From Gemmatimonadales bacterium (GTDB taxonomy: Bacteria; Gemmatimonadota; Gemmatimonadetes; Gemmatimonadales; GWC2-71-9), in NCBI GenBank assembly GCA_044869265.1, contig JBIOXD010000094.1, positions 905 to 64,904 on the forward strand: 64,000 nucleotides of DNA, written 5' to 3'. The position numbers were made by a program, and so were the translations under genes. Below are positions 48,422 through 63,766 of this stretch, piece after piece (the first letter of the stretch is position 1; each line of letters starts with the position of its first letter). The notes beneath the pieces are model-generated. The model made no database searches and was not told where the DNA came from. It worked only from the letters and a program-made list of their open reading frames with translations.

Positions 48422-50305
48422 GTGACTGATCAGTTGGCGCAGCGGCTGGGTCAGGCCCTTGGCTCGTCATTCACGCTCGAAGGCGAGATCGGCCGCGGCG
48501 GCATGGGCGTCGTTTACCACGCGCGCGACGAGCGGCTCAAGCGGAAGGTAGCGGTCAAGGTCCTTCCGCCCGAGCTTGCGTTCCGCGAGGAGATCCGTAC
48601 CCGGTTTCTGCGGGAGGCGGAGACCGCGGCGCGTCTGTCACATCCTCACATCGTCCCAATCCACTCCGTCGGTGAAGGTCCCGACGGGCTCGTCTACTTC
48701 GTGATGGCCTACGTGGACGGTGAATCCCTCGCCGCTCGCCTCAAGCGGCGCGAGCGTCTGCCGGCCGAGGAAGCACGCCGCATCCTGATGGAAACGGCCG
48801 ACGCACTCGGCGCCGGCCACGCGCTCGGGATCATCCACCGGGACGTCAAACCCGACAACATCCTGCTCGAAGGCAGCCGCGGCCGGACGGTCCTTACGGA
48901 TTTTGGCATCGCGAAGGCGTTGACGTCGACGACGGGCCCGGGGACACTGACGGCCACCGGTGTCGCGATCGGCACGCCGCACTACATGAGTCCGGAACAA
49001 GCGGCCGGTGACCGGGAGATCGACGGTCGATCCGACATTTACAGTCTGGGAGTCGTGGGTTATCAGATGCTCGCCGGCGAGCTGCCGTTCTCGGCGCCCA
49101 CCGTTCCGGGCCTCCTGCTGAAACAGATCACGGAACAGGCGCCGAATCTCAAGGACCGAACGCCCACCTGTCCGGACGATCTCGCCTCGTGCGTCATGCG
49201 CTCCCTCGAGAAGGAACCGGAGGCTCGTTGGCCGACCGCGGACGCCTTGCGTCGGGCGCTCGAGTCACGCAGCGCGCCGCCTTACCGGCCCGCGCGAAGA
49301 GCCAGTGCGGGTGGGGCTCGCGGTGAGACGCGACTCGGGCCGCCCGCGAGGGTGTCGCCCGGTGGGGGCGCCGAGCGGCGCCGCGCGACGCGCCCGACGA
49401 CAAGAAAGGATCCCAGGAAAGACCTCACGCCGAGTGGCGAGCCCCGACTGGTCGCGAAGTTCCGCGACAGCTTTGTCTCATGGGCATCAGTGTGCGGCGG
49501 GTTGATGTTCATCGATCTGATGATGGGCGGCGGACTTAGTTGGTCGCTATTTCCCACGGGCCTCTGGGGCGGTTTTGGCTTGCTTCCGCAGTACATGAAG
49601 CTTTGGCACACCGGTTACTCCTGGCGCGATGTGTTGAATCGGCCCGCCGCACCCGATGCGTTCGGGGCGTCACTTGCCTCCCGGCGCACCCTGGGGCCCG
49701 CGCAGGCCGATGAATTCGGACGCCACGCCGACACGGTGCAAATGGCCCGCAATGACCGTGAGGCAATCCTCAAGATCATGGAGCGGGTGCCCCCATCGGA
49801 GCGGAAGCTCCTGCCTGACGTCGTGCAAACGATCGACGCATTGCTGAAGCGCGCGGAGGACCTTGCCCGAATGCTTCACGGCATGAGCGCCGACGTCGAT
49901 GAGGGCGCGCTAGGGAGAATCGAATCACGCATCGAGGCGGTGAGACAGCACGAAGAGGGCAGTGAGCGCGATCGGCAGATCGACTTGCTCGAGCGCCAAC
50001 GCCAGACGTTGAGCGATCTTCTTGCCCGACGGCGTCGTGTAGAAGAGCAAATCGAGTCGTGTGTGCTGGCGATGCAAAACGTGCGGTTCGATCTGCTCAG
50101 GCTACGGTCCGCCGGCGTCGCGGCGGTCTTGAGCGATCTCACGCACGCCACGCAGCAAGCGCGGGCGTTGTCACGCGACGTCGATCACGTGATCGCCGCC
50201 GCGGGGGAAATCCGCGACGTCCTCAGCGCTCCGGCGCCCTCGTCTCCCCGGCCGCCCGCGTCTTCTCAGTCCCCGCCCCAGGGGTCCCGCTTCCCCCATC
50301 ACTAG
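48422..50305 (+). CDS. Hanks-type Ser/Thr protein kinase with 2 TM helices and C-terminal coiled-coil
   Basis: GRGGMG, VAVK, HRDVKPDN, DFG, GTPHYMSPEQ; hydrophobic hairpin; helical tail. Confidence 0.94.
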   Translation: MTDQLAQRLGQALGSSFTLEGEIGRGGMGVVYHARDERLKRKVAVKVLPPELAFREEIRTRFLREAETAARLSHPHIVPIHSVGEGPDGLVYFVMAYVDGESLAARLKRRERLPAEEARRILMETADALGAGHALGIIHRDVKPDNILLEGSRGRTVLTDFGIAKALTSTTGPGTLTATGVAIGTPHYMSPEQAAGDREIDGRSDIYSLGVVGYQMLAGELPFSAPTVPGLLLKQITEQAPNLKDRTPTCPDDLASCVMRSLEKEPEARWPTADALRRALESRSAPPYRPARRASAGGARGETRLGPPARVSPGGGAERRRATRPTTRKDPRKDLTPSGEPRLVAKFRDSFVSWASVCGGLMFIDLMMGGGLSWSLFPTGLWGGFGLLPQYMKLWHTGYSWRDVLNRPAAPDAFGASLASRRTLGPAQADEFGRHADTVQMARNDREAILKIMERVPPSERKLLPDVVQTIDALLKRAEDLARMLHGMSADVDEGALGRIESRIEAVRQHEEGSERDRQIDLLERQRQTLSDLLARRRRVEEQIESCVLAMQNVRFDLLRLRSAGVAAVLSDLTHATQQARALSRDVDHVIAAAGEIRDVLSAPAPSSPRPPASSQSPPQGSRFPHH

Positions 50306-53300
50306 CCTGCTGGCCAGCCCAGCACCCTCGCACCAGTGCGGGGCCGTCGTCCCGCGTGACCGCGAAGTCGATCAGCTCCACGAAGCTTGCGGCCGCCTCT
50401 TCACACCGTCCCGCCCGTATTGCCGCCACCGCCGCAAGCTCCAAATAGCGGGCCGATCCCGGTCTCCGTGTGACCGCATAACGCAAAAGGCTGTCCGCAA
50501 GCAGAGCGGGGGCGTCGAGCGCGATTTGCGTGAGGGCCTGCGCGAGGAATTCTCCCGGGAAAGGGTGACGGTACGTTCCGCGCGCGGCGGCGAGTGCTTC
50601 ACGAGCGTGGAGGGCCCCCTCACCCCAGCGCGAGCTCCGCACGGCGAGCAGTGAGAGAGCGGCGCGGGCCTGTGCGGTGTCGGCGCCTGCCACCATTGCC
50701 TCGCGGAGCGCAGCAGCCGCGAACGGCTGATTGCGAGCGGCAGCGAGGAGCGCGCGCATCTGCAGCGCGTCCGCCCGCGTGTCCCCCGTCCCCCTGGTCT
50801 GCGCGATGGCGACGTTGAGGAGTGAGTCGGCGGCGGCCGTGTCACCCAGTGCCAGGCGCACACCGGCGGTTCGCAGCGTCCACTCTCCGACATCCGGCTG
50901 CGCGCGGCGCGCGGCGTCGAGATACTGCAGCACACCCTGGTCGCTGCGACGCGCTGCGAGCACACGAATCATGTCGAGCGGTGCGGTGTCGTCCTCACGA
51001 TCAGCGAGCCGTACCACAGAATCGAATACGACGTACACAGCGGTGGTAGGGTCGAGGAAGCGGCGCGCAGCGACGAACTCGAGCCGCGGGCGATTGTCGG
51101 TGTGCTCGAAACGCGCGCGCTCGACCAGCCTGGACACCCCAGCTTCGCCGAGCAAGCGCCGGCCGAAATACTGACTGGTGGACTCGATGTTGAGCCATTC
51201 CCTGCTGAGGCTGTGCAACCGGCCACCGGGGCCAATCAACTGCGCAAGCCACTGCTGGTCATAGCGCAGCGGCCGCGACGATCCAACGACAAGCAGGTCG
51301 GCGGTCCCCCCAAACCAGATATTGACGTGTGGGAACACCTCACGCAGGCTGCGCACGATCCCGGCGACGATCGGCAGCGGCAGCTGATATAGCTGTACCC
51401 ACTGACAAAACACGCCATCATCGGCCAGCCGGTCGCGTGCGATGCGAAAGAACTCGGGTGTGTAGAGTGTCGCGATGCCCGCGACCCACGGATTCGACGG
51501 CTCGGAAACGATGATGTCGTAGCGCTCGCGGTCGAGCTGCAGGGCACTGCGCGCGTCGTCGATCACGACGCGGACGTTCGGGCGGAAACGCACCGAATCA
51601 TTGACGGCTCGGAACAAGCTGTCCGCCTCCACCACCTCGGGCTCGATTTCGACGACTTTGACGCGCGTCATCCCCGGGACGGACGCCAGGACATGCGCAG
51701 TCACGCCGGTCCCGTAGCCGATGAGAAAGGCCGACGTGGCTGCACGGCGAGCTACGACCGGCGCCAAGCCGATCATGATCTGTGTGTCCATATCGCCGCG
51801 ATCCGATGCATCGACTTTCCCGTTCACGCGCAGCGTGCGACCAGATTCGCTTTCCCAAACGCTCACCGTCGCATTGGGTCCCTCACGAAAGCTCAACTGG
51901 CGGGCACCACGATGGGCGAGGAATTGATCGCGGGCGCTCTTGTCCATTCGATGACGGGCGTAGATCGTCGGTCCGAGATCGATCAGCCGAGTGCTCCAGC
52001 CAGGTCCCGCGACGGCGACCACGATCGCCAGCATGCCAAGGATGCCGGCCGAAAGCACGCGAACCCGCAGCCGCCGGTCTTCGGTGGAGCCTTCGGCGAT
52101 CCCGCGCCCCGCGAACCCGGCGAGCGCCAGGGCTGCGAGGCCGTTCAAAACGAGTCCGAGACGCAGGGTCGCCTGCGTGCCGAGCACGCCCACCAGGACG
52201 AATCCGGTCAAGACGGCACCGAGGATGCTTCCAATAGTGTTGAGGGCGTAGGCGGCGCCCACGTCGGCGCCGCGCGCGTGGCCCGGCCGGGCAGTGAGGT
52301 CGGTCAGGAGTGGAAAGCTCATGCCCATTCCAATCGCCGGGATAAGGACGACGGCGCCGACGGCAATCCCCATCAACAGCAACCGGGACGCTGCGTCGAG
52401 GCCTTGAAGCTGGAACACCGCGATGATGTAGGTCGGCAAGAATCCGAAAAACAGAAACAGCAACGCGGCGCCCACGCCCGTCACACCCTGCGCCACTCCC
52501 GCCGCGGCGGCGGTCTCGCCGGGCGGCAGACTGCGACGCGCAACAATCACGCTCCCCACCCCGATGCCAAGCAGGAACACGAGGAGGACCAGCGTAAACG
52601 CATACGTCGAGCCTCCGACGATCATCACCAGCACGCGGGTCCAAGCGATCTCGTTGAGAAGAGAAGCAAATGCCGTAAGGGCGAGGAGCGCGAGGGCGAG
52701 GCGGTGGAGAGCGGTAGAGGGCGGTCGGGGGCGGTCTTCCTGAACCCCAGGATCGCGCCGGGGATCAGGAAACCTCTGGTCGCGGCCGTATCGGATCGCA
52801 AGCGCGCCAATCGCGAGGTTGAAGGCCGCTGTGGCCAACAACGAGGCTCGGACGCCGACAAACTCGACGAGGAAAAAGCCGGCGAGCGCGGTGCCCGTCA
52901 TCGCACCCAGCGTATTCAAGCCGTACAGCCGGCCCAGGGACGGTTTGAGGAGGGTGCGGTCGTCACCCATGAGCGCGCGCGTCAGCACCGGCAGCGTGGC
53001 GCCCATGAGTGTGGTGGGGATCAGGAGAACGAGTGCAGCCAGTCCGAAACGCAGTGCGACGCTAGCAGCGCCCTGCAGCGCCAAGGCCCCGGCGGTGCCG
53101 ATGTACGTTCGGTGGGCAAGCGCGAGCACGAGCGGCGAGATGACGCCGAACACACCAATCGCGATTTCCAGCCAGCCGTAGAGCCTCGCAGGATTCGGGG
53201 AACGGTCCGCGATGCGCCCGAAGCCCCAAGCCCCCAGCCCCAAGCCCCCCATGTAGGCCGCAACGACGGTGGTGACCGATTGAATCGTCGAGCCGAAGGA

Positions 53301-53399
53301 TTGATACAGGACGCGGACCCACAGGAGCTCATAGACGAGCCCGGTGGCCCCGGAAAGGAAGAATAGGATGCTGTAGACGAGCGCCGGCTTAAAACGCAT
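50223..53399 (-). CDS. Fused membrane (MFS-like)/spermidine synthase-like protein
   Basis: [58 protein letters not shown]; start MRFKP overlaps the E1 stop. Confidence 0.88.
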
Positions 53400-55518
53400 G
53401 GAGCTCGCGCATGGCCTGCGCGAGATCGTCCACTTGGGGGAGGATGTAGTCCTCGAGGTCGGGCGCGTACCCGACAAAAGTGTCCTTTGATGCGACGCGC
53501 TTCACCGGCGCATCGAGCCATGGGAAGCATTGGTCGGCAATGCGGGCCACGATCTCGGCGCCGTAGCCCCACGAGTATGCGTCCTCGTAGGCGACGATCA
53601 CCTTGTTCGTTTTCCGAATCGAGGCTTCGATCGCTTCCCAGTCGACCGGCGACAGGGATCGCAGGTCGATTACCTCCACACTCACACCGTCTTTTTCCTC
53701 GACCTCTTTAGCGGCCACCAAGGTGCGCTGGACCACCGCGCCGTAGGTGACGACGGTGAGTCCCGTGCCCTCACGCACCACCTTTGCCTTGCCGAACGGG
53801 ATCATGAAGTTGGGACCGGGATTCGGAGCTTTGTTGTAGGTCTGGCGATAGAGATGCTTGTGCTCGAGGAACAGGACGGGATCGTCGCTGCGGATCGCGG
53901 TGCGCAGCAGGCCGTTGGCATCGAGCGCCGTCGCGGGGCAAATGACGCGCAGGCCAGGCACCGCGGTGAAAATCACGGCGCCGGTTTGCGAATGATAGAC
54001 CGACCCGCCTTTCAGGTAGCCGCCGTAAGTGACGCGCACGACGACAGGCGCGCTGAAGGCGTTGCTGGAGCGCCAACGCATGGTCGCCATCTCATTGCGC
54101 AGCTGGTGGTAGGCCGGCCAGATGTAGTCGAAGAACTGGATTTCTACGACGGGTTTGAGCCCGCGCGTGGCGAGCCCGATCGCCCGGCCCACAATGTTGG
54201 CTTCGGCGAGGGGCGTGTTATAGACGCGGTCGCTGCCGAACTGGCGCTGCAACCCCCACGTCACCTTGAAGACCCCGCCTTTGCCTTTCACTTCCTTGAG
54301 GTATTGCTCGCGGCTCACGTCGGCGACATCCTCGCCGAAGACCAGGATGCGTGGATCGCGCGCCATTTCGTCCTTCATGCAGGCGTTGAGCAGATCCACC
54401 ATGGTGGTCGGCTCGCCCGTGAAGTGGGGATCGTCCTCGGTATCGAACTGCTCCGACGTTGGATCCACATCCGGCGAGTAGACCCAGAGCGTCGCGGTTT
54501 CGGGTTTGGGCTGCGGTGATGCCAACGCCATGTCGGCGGCGAGCTGGACCTCCTCCTCTACCTGCGCCTTGATCGTCTCGATCTCACCCTCGGTCGCCAC
54601 GCCTTCGTCCAGCAGCCGCTTCGGGAAAGTGGTCACAGGATCGCGCTTCGCCTCTTCTTCACGTTCACGAGGCGGCTTGTAGAGGATTTCGTCGTCTGAA
54701 AGCGAGTGTGAATAGGGTCGAATCACGTGCGCATGAACAATGGCGGGCCCTTTTCGTTGCCGACACCACTCTGACGCGCGCAGCAGGGCCTCGTACGAGC
54801 GAATCGGATCGTTGCCGTCTACTTCTTCGAGCAACAGGTTGGGGAAATTGCACACCAGCTTCGACACGGATCCGCCGGCGGTCTGCACCTCGATCGGCAC
54901 CGAAATCGCGTACTTGTTGTCTTCGATGAGAAACAGGACCGGGAGCTTGAGATTGCTGGCGCTGTTGAGCGCCTCCCACCACTCGCCCTCGCTCGTCGTG
55001 CCATCCCCCGCGGAGCAGTAGACGATCTCGTCGCCGTGGATGGGCTTGTCCTTGAGGTCCTCGATCCGGCTGTATCGGAGCCATGCCTCGGCGCAGCCCA
55101 CCGCCTGAAGGAACTGCGTGCCGGTAGGACTCGATTGGCTAACGATGTTGAGCTGCTTGTGACCCCAGTGGGACGGCATCTGGCGGCCGCCCGAACTAGG
55201 GTCATCGGCTGCCCCCACGGCCGCCAGCATCATCTCCGTTGGGGTCATGCCGAGCGAGAGGCAGAGCGCCCGATCGCGGTAGTAGGGATAGAACCAGTCG
55301 TACCCAGACCGCAGCACCTTCCCAGCGGCTACGAGCACGGCCTCATGACCCGCTCCCGAGATCTGAAAGAAGATCTTGTTCTGACGCTTGAGCTGGATCT
55401 CCTTGTCGTCGATGCGGCGCGACAGGAGCATCACGCGATAAATGTCGAGAAGATCTGTCTTTGAGAGTGTGGCTGGGGGAGGCGCCGCTTTGCGGGCGGT
55501 GCGCGAACGGGTTGCCAT
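53389..55518 (-). CDS. 2-oxoacid (2-oxoisovalerate-type) dehydrogenase E1, fused alpha/beta
   Basis: [25 protein letters not shown] (TPP motif), SHSLSD, GEDV, NTPLAE, EIQFFDY, FLEHK. Confidence 0.95.
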
Positions 55519-55531
55519 ACTGCAAGATAGC

Positions 55532-57106
55532 CTAGTTCTGTGCGGGTCCGGGAGCCGGGGGTGGGCCGAGGCGCTCGCGCAAAAGTGGGAACTGGTCCAC
55601 TGCGACGCGAATCGTGCGGTCGTTCCGAATGACGAACTCCTCGCGCGCGTCCGATCCCCACCGGACCTCAGCAGCGCGGGCCGCGAGAATTCGGGCGAGC
55701 CGTCGCTCGAGCAGGCTGTCGGTGACCGCCGCGACGTCCAATCGGGTACGAACCCGCGTGAGGAAGGGCGGCAACAGTTTCGCGCGCCATTCGCTTTCCG
55801 CGCTGAGCCAAGCCGCGCGCGCGGCAGGGGTCGCGGGCAGAGTTTGGGCGACGCTGTCCGATACGGCGTCATCGAATCCCGAGTCCGCTGCCGCGCTCCA
55901 CCAGACCGGGAGTGGAGCTGTGATCGGCACGACGACGTCGGGCATGATGCCGCCCCCGGCGCGGACCGGCCGTCCGGCATCCGTCTTATAGACGGTGGTG
56001 GTGTCGTCGGCCGCCCCCGACTTGCCGGCGAAACTCAAGTATTGCTCGTAACCAAGCCCCTGATACCGGCGCTGAATGAATCGCCCGCTGGGAGTGACTA
56101 CGTGACCGATCGTGAGCCAGATGATGTCGCCTGAGGGGACGTAGAAGATCGACTGCATCAGGGCTTTCCCAAAGCTGCGACGCCCCACGAGGAGCGCGCG
56201 GTCGTGGTCCTGGAGCGACGCGGCCAACGCCTCGGCGGCGCTGGCGCTGCGCTCGTCAATCAGCACGATGAGCGGAATGTCGCGGAACGACCCGTCGCGT
56301 TTGGTGACATAGGTGGTGTCGGTATCGCGCTTGCGGCCGCGCGTGCGAAATACGACGGAGTTCTTGTTCAAGAACTCGCTTGCGATTTCGACTGCCAGGA
56401 CCACCGCCCCACCGGGGTTGGAGCGGAGGTCGAGGATGATGCGTTTGGCGCGCGAGCTGCGCAGCTTACCCAGGCCGTCGTGCATTTCCTCCGCGGCCTT
56501 GCCCATGAACTCTTCGAGCCGGATGTACCCGGTGATGGAATCGACCATTCGCACGACGGATACGGAACGCACCTCGAAGGGGTTGCGCTTGAGGGTGACG
56601 CGGAAGGTGTCGGGTTCGAGCCGCGGGCCCCGCTCGAGCAAAAGCCTGACCTTCGAACCCTTTTCACCGGCGAGGCGGAGCGCGAGGGTTTGGATCTCCA
56701 ACCCCGCCACGGCGGTGTCGTTCAGGGTGACGATGCGATCCCCGGGCAGCACGCCCCCCTTTGCGGCCGGGCTACGGGGGACTACGGCCAGCACGGTCGC
56801 GGCGCCCTCGATGTCCTCCAGTGTGATCCCCACCGTGAAGAGCTCACCGCGATCCAGCGCCGTCTGCCTGTCCCACTCGAGGCGTGAAACGTAGTAGCTG
56901 TGCGGATCGAGCGAGCGCAGCACGCCGCGAATCGCGGCCGCCACGAGCTCCCGATAGCTGACCGAGTCGGGGTAGTTGAGACGAATATGATTCAGCACAC
57001 CTGAGAACGTCTGTAGCTCTTCATACGCCGCGCGTTGCTGTGACGGCAGACGCACGGGCGCGCCGATGGTCAGCGCGGCCAGCACCGCGAGACTACCGCA
57101 GCGCAG
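55532..57106 (-). CDS. S41 family C-terminal processing peptidase (start uncertain, about 57085-57184)
   Basis: LDPHSYY, PDZ ([14 protein letters not shown]), [20 protein letters not shown] (Ser), SFGK (Lys), TPSGR, GGIMPD. Confidence 0.92.
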
Positions 57107-58274
57107 CCAGCCGCTGCTTGGCGTTGTCGACCTGGCGCGCGTAGCGGCTGGGCGCGAGAGCGATGAAGCGGTCGTACGAAGCACGCGCTTCCTCCTTCTT
57201 GTTGAGCTGCTGCTGCACGATGCCAAGGTAATAGGGAACGCGCGAGTCGCGTGAATTCGCGTCCATCGCCTGCTTCAGCGTCTGCTCGGCGCCGGCCCAG
57301 TCGCCCGAGCCGGCGAGGGCCTTGCCGAGATCGAGCAGCAAGCTGGGATCATCGGGATTGGCGTTGACGGCGGCACGCCGCTCCTTGATCGCCGCGGGCC
57401 AATTCATGTTGGCTTCGGCGATGGCGGCGAGACGAGCATTGGCCATGTACAGTCCCATGTCGTTTTCCAGCGCTTCACGATAGTAGCGCACCGCCTCTTC
57501 GAGCTTGCCCGCGCGGTGATTGAGCACGCCGAGGATGTACCGGTACTGATTGGCTTCGATCGGGATGTAATACAGAAGGGAATCGGGATGGTGGGCCCCC
57601 TCCGCGCGATCCAGGAGGAATCCGAAATCCAGAATGGCTTCCTGCCAGCGCTCGATGTGCGCCGCCGCGAGCCCGCGGTAGAAGTAGACGAAGTCAGCAA
57701 ACCCTTCGCGTTCCGACTGGATGAGGCGGTCTTCGATGAGCCGGTTGAAGCGATTGTACGCTTCCTGGTACCGGCCGCTCTGGATGTCATCGAAGCCGCC
57801 GAAGATATAGTCGTAGGTGTCGCTCAGGAACTCGTTCGCCGTCCAGTAAATGGACTTCGCGGGCCGGGCACCGGCTTCGATGCGGAGATCCACCAGCGGA
57901 TTGATGATGAACGCGCGCTGGTAATTCCTCCATGATTCTTCGAGCTTGGGTCGGAATTCGTCGGACACGCGACGCTCCGCGATGTCGTCCCACAATTTGG
58001 TGCGCTCACCGAACGGCAGCCGGCTGAGCGCGAGCCAGCCCTCGGCGAACTGCGGCTCGATGGTCACCGCCAGGCGCAGCTCGCGCTCGACATCACCCCA
58101 CCGTTTCGCGTTCCAGTAGGCAAGCGCCAGGTTGTAATGCGCGGCGGCATCGTTCGAGTCTTTGCGCACGATCTGTTCGAGCTCATCGAGTTTCTTGGGC
58201 AGTTTGAATTGCGCGGACGCGACGTTCGTTGCTGTCGCGACGGCGACGGCGAGGAGCAACCAGAGCTTCATCAC
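57093..58274 (-). CDS. Secreted TPR protein (paralog 1)
   Basis: Signal peptide, GGGAGG Shine-Dalgarno, TPR motifs; C-terminal FIALAPSRY. Confidence 0.88.
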   Translation of the reverse strand: MMKLWLLLAVAVATATNVASAQFKLPKKLDELEQIVRKDSNDAAAHYNLALAYWNAKRWGDVERELRLAVTIEPQFAEGWLALSRLPFGERTKLWDDIAERRVSDEFRPKLEESWRNYQRAFIINPLVDLRIEAGARPAKSIYWTANEFLSDTYDYIFGGFDDIQSGRYQEAYNRFNRLIEDRLIQSEREGFADFVYFYRGLAAAHIERWQEAILDFGFLLDRAEGAHHPDSLLYYIPIEANQYRYILGVLNHRAGKLEEAVRYYREALENDMGLYMANARLAAIAEANMNWPAAIKERRAAVNANPDDPSLLLDLGKALAGSGDWAGAEQTLKQAMDANSRDSRVPYYLGIVQQQLNKKEEARASYDRFIALAPSRYARQVDNAKQRLAALR

Positions 58275-58291
58275 GACCTCCCTGCGTCAGG

Positions 58292-59443
58292 CTACTGTAT
58301 TTGAGCCAAGCGCCATTTGGCGTCGAATAACTGCGACTGATAACGGCTTGGCGCGAGGGCGATGAACCGCTCGAACGTCGTTCGCGCATCCGCGGGGCGG
58401 TCGAGCGCCAGCTGCGCCAAGCCCAGCGCATGGTACGCCCGCGTTTCCCGCGGGTTGAGCTGGATGGCGCGCTGCAACTCCTCAGCCGCTTCGGCGTTTC
58501 GACCGGCGCGCTGGAGCGTGGCGCCAAGATCGTACACGAGGCTGGGATCGTCGGGATTCGTCTCCACGGCTCGCTGCCGTTCCGCTACCGCCCGCGGCCA
58601 GTCTTGCGCCTGTTCGTGAAGCTCGGCAAGCCGGATGTGAGCGGTGTACAGACCGATGTTCCGCTCCAACAGCTCCTGATACCCACGGACCGCATCGTCA
58701 CGATGTCCAGCGAGCTGATGCAGGAAAGCGATGACGAAGCCGTAGTCATCCGGGCTAAACCACGTTCGTGCGAACATCTTTTGCGATGCGTCGTCATGTC
58801 CGGCCCGCGGGCGCAGGCGGTCGAGGTCCTTGATCGCATCGTCGAAACGTGACATGCGCGCAGCGCACAACGCGCGGTACCAGAGGAACACGGTGGCGAC
58901 CGAATCCGCCTTGCCTTTGCTGCGTGAAATCAGGTCGCTCAACCGATCGTGGGCCTCTTGAAAGCGTCTGGCACGAAAGTCGTCCATCGCCTGATCCGCG
59001 CCGCCCTTCCAAGCGAGCGGAACCACCCCCGGCCCGGGTCTGCCGAGGTCGAGCAACGGGTTCAGGTAGAACGCGATACGGGCGAGCCGGCGCGATTCCC
59101 GTGACACGCTGTCGTTCCCGAACACAAGGATTTCGAATGGCGTCCCCCCCACATCGACACGTATCCGTTGAACAGAAAGCTTGCGTGGGATGGCGGACAG
59201 GTGGAAGTATCCCGGCGCGAACTGCGGATCGATGGCGATCGCCTCGTTCAGCACCACCTCTCCGTCCGCATACTGCTTGCGCTCGAGATAGGCGACCGCC
59301 AGAGCGAAATGGGCCATCGGATCGTTAGAGTCCGCTCGGGCTTTCAGAGCGAGGTTGGCCACGTCATTCGGCGTCTGCGCTGCGCCGAACGCGGTAAGCA
59401 TCGGAAACAACAGGAGCAGGAGCGAAAGACGGCGTCGGAGCAT
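58292..59443 (-). CDS. Secreted TPR protein (paralog 2)
   Basis: Signal peptide MLRRRLSLLLLLFPML..; same motif series; C-terminal FIALAPSRY. Confidence 0.88.
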   Translation of the reverse strand: MLRRRLSLLLLLFPMLTAFGAAQTPNDVANLALKARADSNDPMAHFALAVAYLERKQYADGEVVLNEAIAIDPQFAPGYFHLSAIPRKLSVQRIRVDVGGTPFEILVFGNDSVSRESRRLARIAFYLNPLLDLGRPGPGVVPLAWKGGADQAMDDFRARRFQEAHDRLSDLISRSKGKADSVATVFLWYRALCAARMSRFDDAIKDLDRLRPRAGHDDASQKMFARTWFSPDDYGFVIAFLHQLAGHRDDAVRGYQELLERNIGLYTAHIRLAELHEQAQDWPRAVAERQRAVETNPDDPSLVYDLGATLQRAGRNAEAAEELQRAIQLNPRETRAYHALGLAQLALDRPADARTTFERFIALAPSRYQSQLFDAKWRLAQIQ

Positions 59444-59535
59444 CCCTAGGTCGCGGAACAAAGCAGGGTCGCTGTTGTCCGAACGATCGCAAGGTGTACC
59501 GCAAGGATCAATATTCGGGCATCTTTGGGGTCACG

Positions 59536-60015
59536 ATGGACGCCGCCGCCAAGAAAACGATCCTCCGCCACTTCCCCTACGGCCTGTACGCCGTCACCGT
59601 GGCGCACGACGGCGAAGATCACGGCATGACGGCCAACTGGCTCACCCAGGCGGCGTTCGAGCCTCCGATGGTCGTCGTCGCCATCGAAAACATGTCGAAG
59701 ACGATCGGCATGATCCGCGACTCTCATCACTTTGCGATAAACCTGCTTTTGACAGGCCAACGCGATCTCGCCGGCAAGCTGGGGCGCAGCTCCGAGCAGG
59801 CGCCGCAGAAGCTCAAAGGAATCAAGACCAAGCCGGCGCCGGTCTCGGGTACGCCGGTGCTGGTCGACGGACTAGGCTGGGTCGAGTGTCGCGTCGTCGC
59901 TACGCTCCCGTCGGGCGATCACACGCTGGTGCTCGGCGAGGTGATCGCGGCGGGCATCGAGCACGAAGGGGAACCGCTCACGCTGCAGGAAGCGGGATTC
60001 AAGTACTCGGGCTAA
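59536..60015 (+). CDS. Flavin reductase-like protein
   Basis: FPYGLYAVT, GMTANW, PPMV, FAINLL, ECRV, GDHTL.LGEV. Confidence 0.92.
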   Translation: MDAAAKKTILRHFPYGLYAVTVAHDGEDHGMTANWLTQAAFEPPMVVVAIENMSKTIGMIRDSHHFAINLLLTGQRDLAGKLGRSSEQAPQKLKGIKTKPAPVSGTPVLVDGLGWVECRVVATLPSGDHTLVLGEVIAAGIEHEGEPLTLQEAGFKYSG

Positions 60016-60029
60016 GTCGCCGGCCGTCA

Positions 60030-61220
60030 TCACTTGGGAAGCTTCGCCAGCCGCTGTTGCGCATCCGCCCGCAGGTCCGTCATCCGCATCGGCGCGAGTG
60101 CCAGGAACTTCGTGTACTCCTCATGTGCCAGATCGGACTGGCCGAACGACTCTGCGGCACGGCCCAGCAAATAGTGCGGCGGTGCAAAGCGGTCGTTCAG
60201 CACGGTCACGCGGTAGAGCTGTTGCACGCATTCCCGTATCCGGCCGGTATTGAACAGCGAGACCGCAAGGTCGAACAGCGCGGCTGGATCCTCGCTGTTT
60301 ACTTCCGCGGCGCGTTGCCGTTCGAGTAGCGCGGCCGAGTCTCTCCCGGCCTGCTCGTGGATGCTCGCCAAATAGGTGTGCGCCATGACGAGACCCAGAT
60401 CATGCTCGAGTGACTCCTGGTACAGGGCCATGGCGGTGTCGGTGTTTCCTGCGCGATGGTGCAGCGCCGCGAGCATGAAACGGTATTCATTGTCGTTGAG
60501 CGGAATGGGAATGACCTCAGCCCGCTGCAGCTGCTTGATGGTTCGCTCGAGCAGGGTTCGGAAATCGCGGATGGCAAGAGGGTATTGGGCGCTGTGGGCC
60601 GCGGCCAGGCCGCGGTACCACAGGATGTAATCGGGGACTTTGTCGGGACGTTTGGCCTCGTCGAACTCCGTCTGGGCCAGTTTCGCCAGTCGTTCTCGAG
60701 CTGAGGGGTAGCGACCCCGCGCCAGATCCACAGCCCACGCGTAGTAGCGCAGGTAGAGCTGATACTCTCGCAGGCTGAAGTCCAATGCCTGCGGCTCCTC
60801 GTCGGGCGCGTCAATTCCCAGGATTTCGAGGTTGACCATCGGATCGGTGCGAAATGCCCGCTGGTAAAGCTCGCGCGCTTCCTTGACGGCGGGCCGCCAG
60901 GCTTCCGGCACCCGGTCGCGCAGTTCCTCGTCGCGGAGCTGGGTCCTGCGCGCGTACGGGAGCGAAGCCAGCGCAAGGTACACTTCCGGGTAGCGTGGCT
61001 CCATCGCCATCGCGAGCCGAAGCAGGCTATCGGCCTGGCGCCAGTGGTGCTGCCTCCAGTGCGCCAGCCCGAGGTAATACTTCCGCTGGGCATCGTTCGT
61101 ATCTTCGCGCGCCCAGGCTTCCAGGTCCTTGAGATCTCGGCGGAGAATCCATGCGAGCTGTCCGTGGGCCTCTACGGGCGGGGCCAGCAGCAGCATCAGG
61201 ACGACGGCGAGTCGGCACAT
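60030..61220 (-). CDS. Secreted TPR protein (paralog 3)
   Basis: Signal peptide MCRLAVVLMLLLAPPVEAHG-Q; same motif series; C-terminal FLALAPMRM. Confidence 0.88.
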   Translation of the reverse strand: MCRLAVVLMLLLAPPVEAHGQLAWILRRDLKDLEAWAREDTNDAQRKYYLGLAHWRQHHWRQADSLLRLAMAMEPRYPEVYLALASLPYARRTQLRDEELRDRVPEAWRPAVKEARELYQRAFRTDPMVNLEILGIDAPDEEPQALDFSLREYQLYLRYYAWAVDLARGRYPSARERLAKLAQTEFDEAKRPDKVPDYILWYRGLAAAHSAQYPLAIRDFRTLLERTIKQLQRAEVIPIPLNDNEYRFMLAALHHRAGNTDTAMALYQESLEHDLGLVMAHTYLASIHEQAGRDSAALLERQRAAEVNSEDPAALFDLAVSLFNTGRIRECVQQLYRVTVLNDRFAPPHYLLGRAAESFGQSDLAHEEYTKFLALAPMRMTDLRADAQQRLAKLPK

Positions 61221-61307: not shown

Positions 61308-62960
61308 TCAGTTTCCCTTGCGGTAGATAACCCGGCCTCCCACAACGGTATACCGCGCCTGGATGGTCCCGAGCGACTCCGGTGCGACCGCAAACGGATC
61401 GCGATCGAGAATGACGACGTCCGCGTACCGCCCCGGCGCCAGCGTTCCCCATTTCTGCTCGTTGAACGTCGCCCAGGCGTTGCCATAGGTGTAGGCGCGC
61501 AGCGTCTCTCCGACGGTGATCTTCTGCTCCGGCACCCATCCAGCCGGGTTCTTGCCGTCGAGCGTGCGGCGCGTGACGGCGGCGTACACCCCAAGCATCG
61601 GATCGAGCGGCGCGACGGTCCAATCGGATCCGAACGCCAGCATTGCCTCAGTCTCGAGGAGTGTACGGAACGCGTAGGTTGTCCTGATCCGAACGGGACC
61701 GATGCGCTGCGCCAGCCAGCGACCGTCATCGATCGCGTGATACGGCTGCATCGACGCCACCACGTTCTGCCTGCCGAAGCGTGGGATGTCTTCGAGACGC
61801 AGATGTTGCGCGTGCTCCACGCGGAAGCGGCGATCGCGGGGGTCGTGCGCGCGCATGACGCTGTCGAAGATCGCGAGCACGATGGCATTGGCGCGGTCGC
61901 CGATGGCGTGCACTGCGACGTGCAGGCCGGCCGAATCGGCGGCGCCGATCCACCGCCGCATATCGGCTTCGGGATGCTGCATCAGACCACGGTAATTGGC
62001 GGAATCGGTAAAGGGCTCGAAAAAGAACGCCGTGCGTGACCCGGCGGAGCCGTCCATATACCCTTTCACGCCTCCAATGCGCACCCAATCATCCCCTGCG
62101 TCACGCGCCGCGCTGTCCGCGACCGCCTTCCAGCTCTCGAGCGGCAGGAAAACAGATACGCGGATCGTCAGGCGATTGGCCTGCTTGAGCCGGCGATAGC
62201 TGGCGAGATCCGCGAACGAAGCCGACATGTGCGCGGTCGCGGTCACCCCCAGGGCAGCCGCATGCGCGAGTGCGCGCGCGAGAGCGGAATCGCGCCGCTC
62301 AGGCGAGGGCTCGGGCGCGGCGCGCCAGATCAATTCCATCGCCTGGTCCTTGAAGATGCCGATCGGCGCGCCGCGAGCGTCACGAGGAATCTCACCGCCA
62401 CCGGGCACCGGCGTTTCGTTACCTACGCCGGCGGCACGCATCGCGGCGCTGTTCGCCAGACCCATATGGCCATCAAGGCGGCTGACGAACACGGGATTGT
62501 TCGGTGTGACGGAATCGATCCAGCCGTGCTGCGGCAGCGGAGCGCCGCGCCACAGCGTGTGATCCCAGTCGCCGCCGGTGATCCACTCCCCGGGCTTGAG
62601 TCGCGCCGCATAATCCTTCAGGCGGCGAACGAACACCTGCGGCGTCGCCGCATCACGCAGGTCCACGGATGCGAGCTGAAAGCCGCCATCGATGAAGTGG
62701 GTGTGCCCGTCCCCAAAGCCCGGCATAACGAGGCCGCCGGCCGCCTGCAGCACTTCGGTCTTGGATCCGATGTAGCGCGCGATTTCGGCTGAATCGCCGA
62801 CGGCGAGAATCTTGCCGTCGGCGATCGCCACGGCGCCCAGCTGCCCACGCCCCGTCGACAGGCCGGTCCACACGGGGCCACCCTGAATAACAAGTTCTGC
62901 TTTTTGCCCGCATCCCACGAGCGCGATTGACGTCAAGACGGCGCACGACGCACGACGCAC
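61308..62960 (-). CDS. Amidohydrolase 3 family (YtcJ-like) lipoprotein
   Basis: LVGC lipobox, PGFGDGHTH, DGH, KGYMDGS, HAIGDRA, RVEHAQ, SMQP.H, GSDW. Confidence 0.93.
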   Translation of the reverse strand: MRRASCAVLTSIALVGCGQKAELVIQGGPVWTGLSTGRGQLGAVAIADGKILAVGDSAEIARYIGSKTEVLQAAGGLVMPGFGDGHTHFIDGGFQLASVDLRDAATPQVFVRRLKDYAARLKPGEWITGGDWDHTLWRGAPLPQHGWIDSVTPNNPVFVSRLDGHMGLANSAAMRAAGVGNETPVPGGGEIPRDARGAPIGIFKDQAMELIWRAAPEPSPERRDSALARALAHAAALGVTATAHMSASFADLASYRRLKQANRLTIRVSVFLPLESWKAVADSAARDAGDDWVRIGGVKGYMDGSAGSRTAFFFEPFTDSANYRGLMQHPEADMRRWIGAADSAGLHVAVHAIGDRANAIVLAIFDSVMRAHDPRDRRFRVEHAQHLRLEDIPRFGRQNVVASMQPYHAIDDGRWLAQRIGPVRIRTTYAFRTLLETEAMLAFGSDWTVAPLDPMLGVYAAVTRRTLDGKNPAGWVPEQKITVGETLRAYTYGNAWATFNEQKWGTLAPGRYADVVILDRDPFAVAPESLGTIQARYTVVGGRVIYRKGN

Positions 62961-63235: not shown

Positions 63236-63766
63236 TCAGTCCTGTGGACCGCGCTCCAGCGCGCGAATCAACGCGCGGCAGAACTGCGGCAGGTCGGCGG
63301 GTGTCCGTGACGAAATCAGATTGCCGTCCACAACGACGGCGCTGTCCTCCCACAGCACGCCGGCGTTTTCCATGTCGTCCTTGATTGCCCGAACACTCGT
63401 TGCACGTTTTCCCTTGAGGATCTTTGCGGAGATCGGCACCCAGCCGGCGTGACAAATGAAGGCGACGGGCTTGCCCGCTTGGTAGAGTTCGCGCGTAAGC
63501 TGGAGGACCTTCTCAAAGCGCCGCAGTTGGTCAGGTGCGAACCCCCCAGGAATCACCAGTCCGTCAAAATCGGAAGCTTGAACGTGATCCACCTGAGTGT
63601 CGACGGTGACCGGATAACCCCGCTTGCCCTGATACGTCTTCTCACCAATTCCAGCGACAACCGTTTGCGAACCCTCTTCCTCGAGTCGGATCTTGGGATA
63701 CCACAACTCCAGGTCTTCATAGAGCGGGCCCGCGAAGAAAAGCACGCGTTTTCCCTGCAGCGACAT
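63236..63766 (-). CDS. PfpI/DJ-1 family type 1 glutamine amidotransferase-like protein
   Basis: YEDLELWYP, IPGGFAPDQLR, AFICHAG, VVDGNLISSR.P.DL; GGAGG Shine-Dalgarno. Confidence 0.95.
   Translation of the reverse strand: MSLQGKRVLFFAGPLYEDLELWYPKIRLEEEGSQTVVAGIGEKTYQGKRGYPVTVDTQVDHVQASDFDGLVIPGGFAPDQLRRFEKVLQLTRELYQAGKPVAFICHAGWVPISAKILKGKRATSVRAIKDDMENAGVLWEDSAVVVDGNLISSRTPADLPQFCRALIRALERGPQD

Follow-up and report, generated by a model that had tools for sequence, protein, structure and literature searches.

Two proteases of the carboxy-terminal processing type (CTPs) are known to use adaptors of the tetratricopeptide repeat (TPR) type: Escherichia coli Prc works with NlpI, and Pseudomonas aeruginosa CtpA with LbcA, whose Acinetobacter baumannii orthologue WthA is described as a soluble periplasmic protein (PMC12772221). 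According to the account in PMC11021448, each of these systems uses one adaptor, and how the TPR protein chooses and delivers substrates is still open. Here we describe a locus in a 64,000-nucleotide stretch (the window) of contig JBIOXD010000094.1 from a Gemmatimonadales bacterium (assembly GCA_044869265.1), in which the gene for an S41 protease, here called S41b, is accompanied by genes for three paralogous TPR proteins (TPR1, TPR2, and TPR3). An earlier note on this DNA had described three TPR genes preceding the protease gene; all three are present, but they are not contiguous, since a plus-strand flavin reductase gene intervenes. Comparative genomic analysis indicates that the protease and the TPR family form a real, dedicated module, and we consider it fairly probable that, once in the periplasm, the exported protease is bound by the TPR proteins, which would serve it as adaptors or activators in the manner of LbcA and NlpI. 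In the literature, no report of such S41-TPR pairing was found, judged from titles and the starts of abstracts, with subscription papers mostly outside the coverage and supplements excluded.

S41b was assigned to the S41A proteases by its matches to PF03572 (142.8 bits, cut-off 24) and PDZ, and it scored 214.7 bits against TIGR00225, just below the cut-off of 218.6. P. aeruginosa CtpA was the best sequence match (E 3e-47), and the AlphaFold2 (AF2) model of S41b (predicted local distance difference test, pLDDT, 88) had the CtpA-LbcA structure 8sxe as its best fold match (Foldseek E 2e-29). In the alignment with CtpA, the catalytic Ser and Lys stood opposite S302 and K327 (numbering offset of 33, confirmed by P245, S302, and K327), the Gln and His positions were kept, and the Ser-Lys pair was invariant in 87/87 proteases of the partnered lineages (64/64 S41b and 23/23 of the sister lineage S41c). 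By alignment, the catalytic pair is therefore retained, as the earlier note had claimed. Unlike CtpA, with which similarity ends at about residue 343, S41b has a helical C-terminal domain in place of the CtpA CDR. The source genome encodes a second S41 protease (contig C105, 34% identical to S41b), of a type present in nearly all genomes of the genus. S41b is an accessory, dispensable clade beside this ordinary, near-universal S41, which distinguishes it from the CtpA-LbcA/WthA systems.

The TPR1 stop at 57093 lies within the protease leader, so that the abutting or overlapping arrangement noticed previously is indeed an overlap. No conserved ATG, GTG, or TTG preceded the S41b signal peptide when the window was compared with its relatives: the last TPR1 codons contain ATG in L022, L023, and L026 and ACG in the window (57124-57122), L200, L024, and L209, and a GTG near the protease start in the window reads GCG in the 99% identical relative L200. 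Because purifying selection on the protease gene is strong (ratio of nonsynonymous to synonymous substitution rates, dN/dS, 0.07-0.10) even though no standard start codon is conserved, we infer that translation probably begins at a near-cognate ACG (57124) or CTG (57106) inside the end of TPR1; the overlap with this non-ATG start would probably couple translation of the two proteins. A frameshift fusion of TPR1 and the protease was ruled out, the protease retaining a signal-peptide-like stretch. A TPR-S41 fusion was likewise seen in none of five longer matches or of the best 150 family representatives, which is weak evidence.

TPR1, TPR2, and TPR3 all matched Pfam TPR and aligned collinearly over their whole length (pairwise identity 31-36%, E 1e-40 to 1e-65), which bears out the shared collinear motif series that had been noticed in these three proteins of ~390 aa. 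A sequence search of the source genome detected no further full-length copy. The TPR1 model was all helical (pLDDT 91) and was interpreted as ~8 repeats plus a cap and three insertions; its best fold match was a consensus TPR (Z 17.3, root mean square deviation 3.4 over 233 residues), and the Pfam matches, the model, and the fold match together display the tandem helix-pair superhelix of TPR proteins. Sequence and fold matches of the family were generic TPRs, and matches in the ESM Atlas were to TPR clusters only, the top two of which are commonest in Gemmatimonadota. Of the best 150 representatives (50% identity), 110 were full-length family members of 327-420 aa, and none of the 150 contained an S41 domain.

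Each window TPR starts with a basic/hydrophobic leader ending in A-x-A/G-Q, and no lipobox Cys was found in any of the three leaders, in agreement with the earlier note. The idea of soluble adaptors drawn from it fits the window paralogs, but solubility is not new, being known from WthA, and one subclade of the family looks lipidated. A heuristic search detected a hydrophobic leader in 107/111 anchored members of the close subfamily, TPRa, and in 49/50 anchored members of a distant one, TPRb; 18 further family members could not be anchored. In the TPRb subclade mentioned above (L051, L072, L100, L106, L123, and L146), a Cys follows the hydrophobic leader and is itself followed by a Pro/Thr-rich linker. 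These six members are probably lipoproteins, a call made by eye, given that a lipobox pattern scan yielded mostly false matches.

The dN/dS values were 0.11-0.17 for TPR1, 0.10-0.34 for TPR2, and 0.13-0.32 for TPR3, all being simple Nei-Gojobori estimates in which some dS values approach saturation. The TPR paralogs and the protease are, on these estimates, under purifying selection, and the range of 0.07-0.34 rules out reading any TPR paralog or the ATG-less protease as a pseudogene. Recent tandem duplication was also ruled out, the three paralogs falling in three supported multi-species clades. When 226 TPRa sequences were clustered, 40 clusters were obtained, nine of them with at least six members, and the three window TPRs fell in three different clusters. 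By their phylogeny, the paralogs are old, retained subfamilies.

The association of the family with S41b was surveyed at two levels. Among 50 genomes of the genus, with family membership cut off at E <= 1e-25, the TPR family occurred in 22, and all 22 carry S41b. Among 251 genomes of the order, where only 5-7 candidates were scored per genome, S41b was present in 38 (39 genes) and TPRa in 30, all within those 38, as against 0/213 genomes without S41b. A family member flanks 34 of the 39 S41b genes (TPRa directly upstream in 29, a distant member directly downstream in five), while three genes had no family neighbour and two lay at contig breaks. At 73 metagenome TPR1 loci, with arrays that reach five TPR copies, an S41 gene followed the array in 58; 14 loci end within 600 nt, and one held a fragment only. 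Loss is also shared. Of 12 regions upstream of the E1 dehydrogenase gene, taken from genus genomes without the array, 11 (L081-L091) lacked both genes and kept the flanks, although one of these genomes (G043) carries a protease-TPR pair elsewhere; the twelfth (L092 in G015) held protease fragments only. In five genus genomes (93-100% complete) without an intact S41b, no full-length TPRb was found. Decaying modules were observed at L094 (G058), L092 (G015), L098 (G014), and L270, comprising a frameshifted protease with one TPR gene, fragments without a TPR gene, and a fragmented array.

The pairing extends beyond TPRa and S41b. TPRb, for which hhalign showed collinearity with TPRa (99.9%, 346 columns), lies directly upstream of 14/15 S41c genes, whose products are 35-43% identical to S41b; the 15 genes had already been found with the protease query, and their TPRb neighbours were found by the TPRb search. 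In a tree of 119 S41 proteins (a quick tree with midpoint root, in which 10/23 S41c rows had been reached through their TPR), S41b and S41c stood on one side of a branch (Shimodaira-Hasegawa-like approximate likelihood ratio test, SH-aLRT, 99). A family neighbour was present in 79/87 S41b and S41c rows and in 0/32 rows of other S41s; flanks of 1.4 kb or more were available for 18 of these 32. Six S41b genes have TPRb directly downstream and belong to two lineages, one co-directional with a stop/start overlap and one convergent. A single clade for these six was rejected (p-AU 0.0002, 27 rows) in an approximately unbiased (AU) test done after the S41 tree had been viewed, and the accompanying TPRb genes likewise divide between two clades; therefore, on at least two occasions the pairing was formed anew or kept independently. 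The earlier note would have abandoned its proposal had the family occurred mostly without S41 neighbours; adjacency, co-loss, and re-pairing instead tie it to one S41 lineage.

This pattern bears on whether common descent alone accounts for the neighbourhood, the protease being flanked by a tandem TPR array by chance. The amidohydrolase and E1 genes on either side are likewise conserved neighbours within the family, as such an explanation would have it. The protease-TPR pair nevertheless persists at loci without these flanks (L054, L057, L059, and L061), has outlasted the S41b/S41c split and a change of side and strand, and is lost where the flanks remain. We regard shared ancestry alone as the least credible of the alternatives, with very little to recommend it.

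For the CtpA-LbcA complex, PMC11021448 reports that LbcA H1 binds CtpA residues L43, L46, F49, and L53, and that L46K or A50K abolishes degradation. The position equivalent to L46 is L in 86/87 partnered proteases and mostly A (23/31) in other S41s, and that equivalent to A50 is S in 86/87 partnered proteases versus mostly D/E (21/31). By analogy with CtpA, the N-terminal helix H1 of S41b is a predicted partner-binding site, in which the residues where LbcA docks on CtpA are kept. A second difference concerns the Gly-x-Gly loop of the PDZ domain, presumably the carboxylate (tail-binding) loop. Its first Gly is present in 18/64 S41b (lost in 46/64) versus 29/31 other S41s, and its second Gly is kept in 64/64 S41b and replaced by Pro in 23/23 S41c, whose PDZ may no longer read C-termini. 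Besides this Pro, all 23 S41c proteins (L121, L126-L129, L131-L134, L137, and L148-L160) have Met at the position equivalent to Q331.

In the mechanism that we propose, the protease and the TPR proteins, both predicted to be exported by Sec, would associate through docking of the TPR protein on the protease N-terminal helices, as LbcA docks on CtpA. The concave TPR groove would catch a substrate and pass its C-terminus to the Ser-Lys site, and the protease, with its drifted PDZ loop, would leave the choice of targets largely to the adaptor. Each paralog might recruit its own substrates or act in its own set of conditions, and several specificities for one protease through different paralogs are plausible. 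Helix A of TPR repeats lines the binding groove. Positions conserved within but differing between the nine larger TPRa clusters made up 59/110 in helix A versus 39/142 in helix B (p 3e-5), and 44/92 in helix A when repeat 3 was left out (p 0.002), in an alignment whose columns are not independent and with helices assigned to A or B by the analyst.

All of the linkage evidence fits equally well with TPR proteins that bind S41b in a capacity other than substrate adaptor, for instance to inhibit it, to chaperone its folding, or to aid its assembly. The overlap of TPR1 with the protease gene would suit a protective partner, and periplasmic modulators of Prc-dependent proteolysis have been described (PMC11789061). 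One inhibitor would be enough, however, yet as many as five old subfamilies have been retained together and differ most on the predicted groove-facing helices, which makes such roles distinctly unlikely in our view. Co-expression and co-loss would also fit an enzyme-substrate pair, in which S41b matures or turns over the TPR proteins. Prc is described as preferring non-polar or unconstrained tails (preprint 10.1101/2020.03.31.019315), whereas a non-polar last residue occurs in 2/115 and 0/61 family members (2/176) and most members end directly after the capping helix. This argument is not decisive, because the rule of CtpA itself differs, but we think it very improbable that the TPR proteins are substrates.

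Several observations weigh against an adaptor role. All of the genomes compared are kin, and the counts are not independent trials. The number of copies and the type of paralog differ freely between loci, a single copy being enough at 21/64 S41b loci, and the annotated neighbours at partnered loci included none of the peptidoglycan hydrolases that make up the known class of substrates. In CtpA, the residues of H1 contribute to the core of the dimer as well (described in PMC8764530), and Helicobacter pylori CtpA, reported as adaptor-independent (PMC12749690), has F-S at the F49/A50 positions too, so that the H1 signature fits docking without being diagnostic of it. Similarity of the family to LbcA is limited to generic repeats in the C-terminal part (profile positions 220-345) and is far weaker than that to designed TPRs. 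S41b or S41c occurs without any family member found in G010 (S41b, 79% complete) and G194 (S41c, 93%). Conversely, at 27 fetched loci with family copies the flank contained no S41, contig ends cutting several of these loci short, and of the 67 order genomes with either TPR subfamily, 62 have S41b/S41c and in five (G036, G095, G101, G115, and G206; 76-95% complete) none was found. Some S41-less copies stand near other peptidases, namely M6 (3 loci in one genus, L103-L105), met-zincin (4 loci in one genus), M20, and M28-PDZ. The TPRb copies near met-zincin (DUF4953/DUF5117), M20, and M28-PDZ peptidases are at L124, L136, L140, L142, and L144. In five further genomes (G235, G278, G082, G125, and G386), S41b or S41c had no neighbour seen, yet a TPRb is encoded elsewhere.

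The copies near other peptidases, and the five genomes with the family and no S41b/c found, would fit TPR proteins that bind peptides or proteins in the periplasm as helpers in nutrient scavenging and serve several exported peptidases, their link to S41b reflecting shared function and not a stable complex. An exported M1 aminopeptidase (~760 aa) at several positions of the locus in relatives points the same way; the gene precedes the module, interrupts it, follows it, or takes its place (L082:5833-8124, L074:10671-12941, L056:8750-11173, and L069:3486-5894). On the other side, the M1 gene remains where the protease and TPRs are lost (L082 and L085), S41-less loci mostly have unrelated neighbours, with peptidases a minority, and family adjacency is confined to one S41 lineage. 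Although it has the best claim among the alternatives, we consider the scavenging role unlikely and favour adaptors or activators of S41b.

Compared with the described systems, the module is closest to CtpA-LbcA in its protease, and its partner, like LbcA, is an all-helical TPR protein. LbcA and WthA, however, have an N-terminal adaptor extension and 11 TPRs (~545 residues), and homology of the family to them did not extend over the full length. Whereas ctpA and lbcA are reported to lie in separate operons (PMC12569750), the S41b and TPR genes abut, and one to five TPR copies stand in place of one adaptor. The window partners appear soluble, as WthA is in the A. baumannii CtpA-WthA pair. The module resembles E. 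coli Prc-NlpI in combining an S41 protease with a TPR partner proposed to bring substrates, but Prc is a ~680-residue monomer that matches S41b more weakly than CtpA does, and NlpI is a four-TPR outer-membrane lipoprotein homodimer, unlike the window paralogs with no lipobox Cys and ~8 repeats in the model. NlpI was absent from the 60 sequence and 50 fold matches listed for the family, and no NlpI model was among the NCBIfam matches; in these comparisons, the family shows no sign of belonging to the LbcA/WthA or NlpI family. H. pylori CtpA and Bacillus subtilis CtpB share the protease fold of S41b, and the former also its F-S in H1, but both activate without an adaptor, and the accounts consulted in part describe no dedicated TPR partner for them. 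Against the precedent of two CTPs with TPR adaptors, what appears new here is that a dispensable lineage of S41 proteases has, next to it, a partner family that can be expanded and replaced.

Table 1 Features of the S41b-TPR locus, in window coordinates.
Feature	Position	Strand	Basis and remarks
S41b, accessory S41/CtpA-type protease	55532..57124	-	Signal peptide, N-terminal helices, PDZ, protease core, helical C-terminal domain; Pfam S41 and PDZ, AF2
Catalytic Ser codon of S41b (= CtpA S302)	56240..56242	-	Alignment to CtpA
Catalytic Lys codon of S41b (= CtpA K327)	56165..56167	-	Alignment to CtpA
N-terminal helix H1 of S41b (= CtpA L43-K57, LbcA docking)	56981..57025	-	Predicted partner-binding site, putative function
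TPR1, exported-type ~390-aa all-helical TPR protein	57093..58271	-	Pfam TPR, model; stop overlaps protease leader
TPR2, fastest-evolving paralog, shortened insertions	58292..59443	-	Pfam TPR, alignment, dN/dS
Flavin reductase-like gene (PF01613), outside module	59536..60015	+	Pfam; interrupts array, stays when module is lost
TPR3 paralog	60030..61220	-	Pfam TPR, alignment, dN/dS
Amidohydrolase_3 gene, upstream flank	61308..62960	-	Pfam
Fused E1 alpha/beta 2-oxoacid dehydrogenase, downstream flank	53389..55518	-	13 nt after protease stop

Along the minus strand, the order of genes is amidohydrolase, TPR3, TPR2, TPR1, S41 protease, and fused E1 dehydrogenase (Table 1). Because the plus-strand flavin reductase gene separates TPR3 from TPR2, TPR3 is probably cotranscribed with the upstream amidohydrolase gene rather than with the protease. 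A promoter and terminator scan of the locus gave results at chance level. Contigs from RNA libraries of relatives span S41 and TPR3 and little of TPR1 or TPR2; such contigs cannot show transcription or co-transcription and were not used. Named homologues of the window proteins were from Gemmatimonadales or Gemmatimonadota. Beyond the flanks, the E1 gene is overlapped by a gene for a 1084-aa fusion (50223-53477) of a membrane region resembling the major facilitator superfamily (MFS), a spermidine synthase domain, and a long C-terminal extension, which many relatives do not have. A Ser/Thr kinase-like gene (48422-50305), named from motifs and encoding a membrane segment and a coiled C-terminus, is kept at the locus across the family, and a PfpI gene (63236-63766) varies among relatives in its orientation with respect to the amidohydrolase gene.

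If the proposed adaptor role is correct, the module would be a third, separately derived CTP-TPR pairing and would widen the one-adaptor design of E. coli and Pseudomonas. It offers a natural series: a single protease is accompanied by three paralogs with differences at the predicted groove positions, relatives have other subsets of these, and in the sister clade the PDZ loop is without its glycines; adaptor-encoded specificity is therefore directly testable by swaps. The repertoire is large: at 50% identity, the best 150 matches include the 110 clusters of full-length members, and each genome has an array of one to five copies. More tentatively, and as a possibility that we would not yet bet on, this Gemmatimonadota CTP lineage may have handed substrate choice from its PDZ domain to a swappable repertoire of TPR adaptors, which would make its targets modular and evolvable, like cullin with F-box proteins. 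With an adaptor role, a large family that has had no annotation would also gain a function in Gemmatimonadota, an abundant and little-studied soil phylum.

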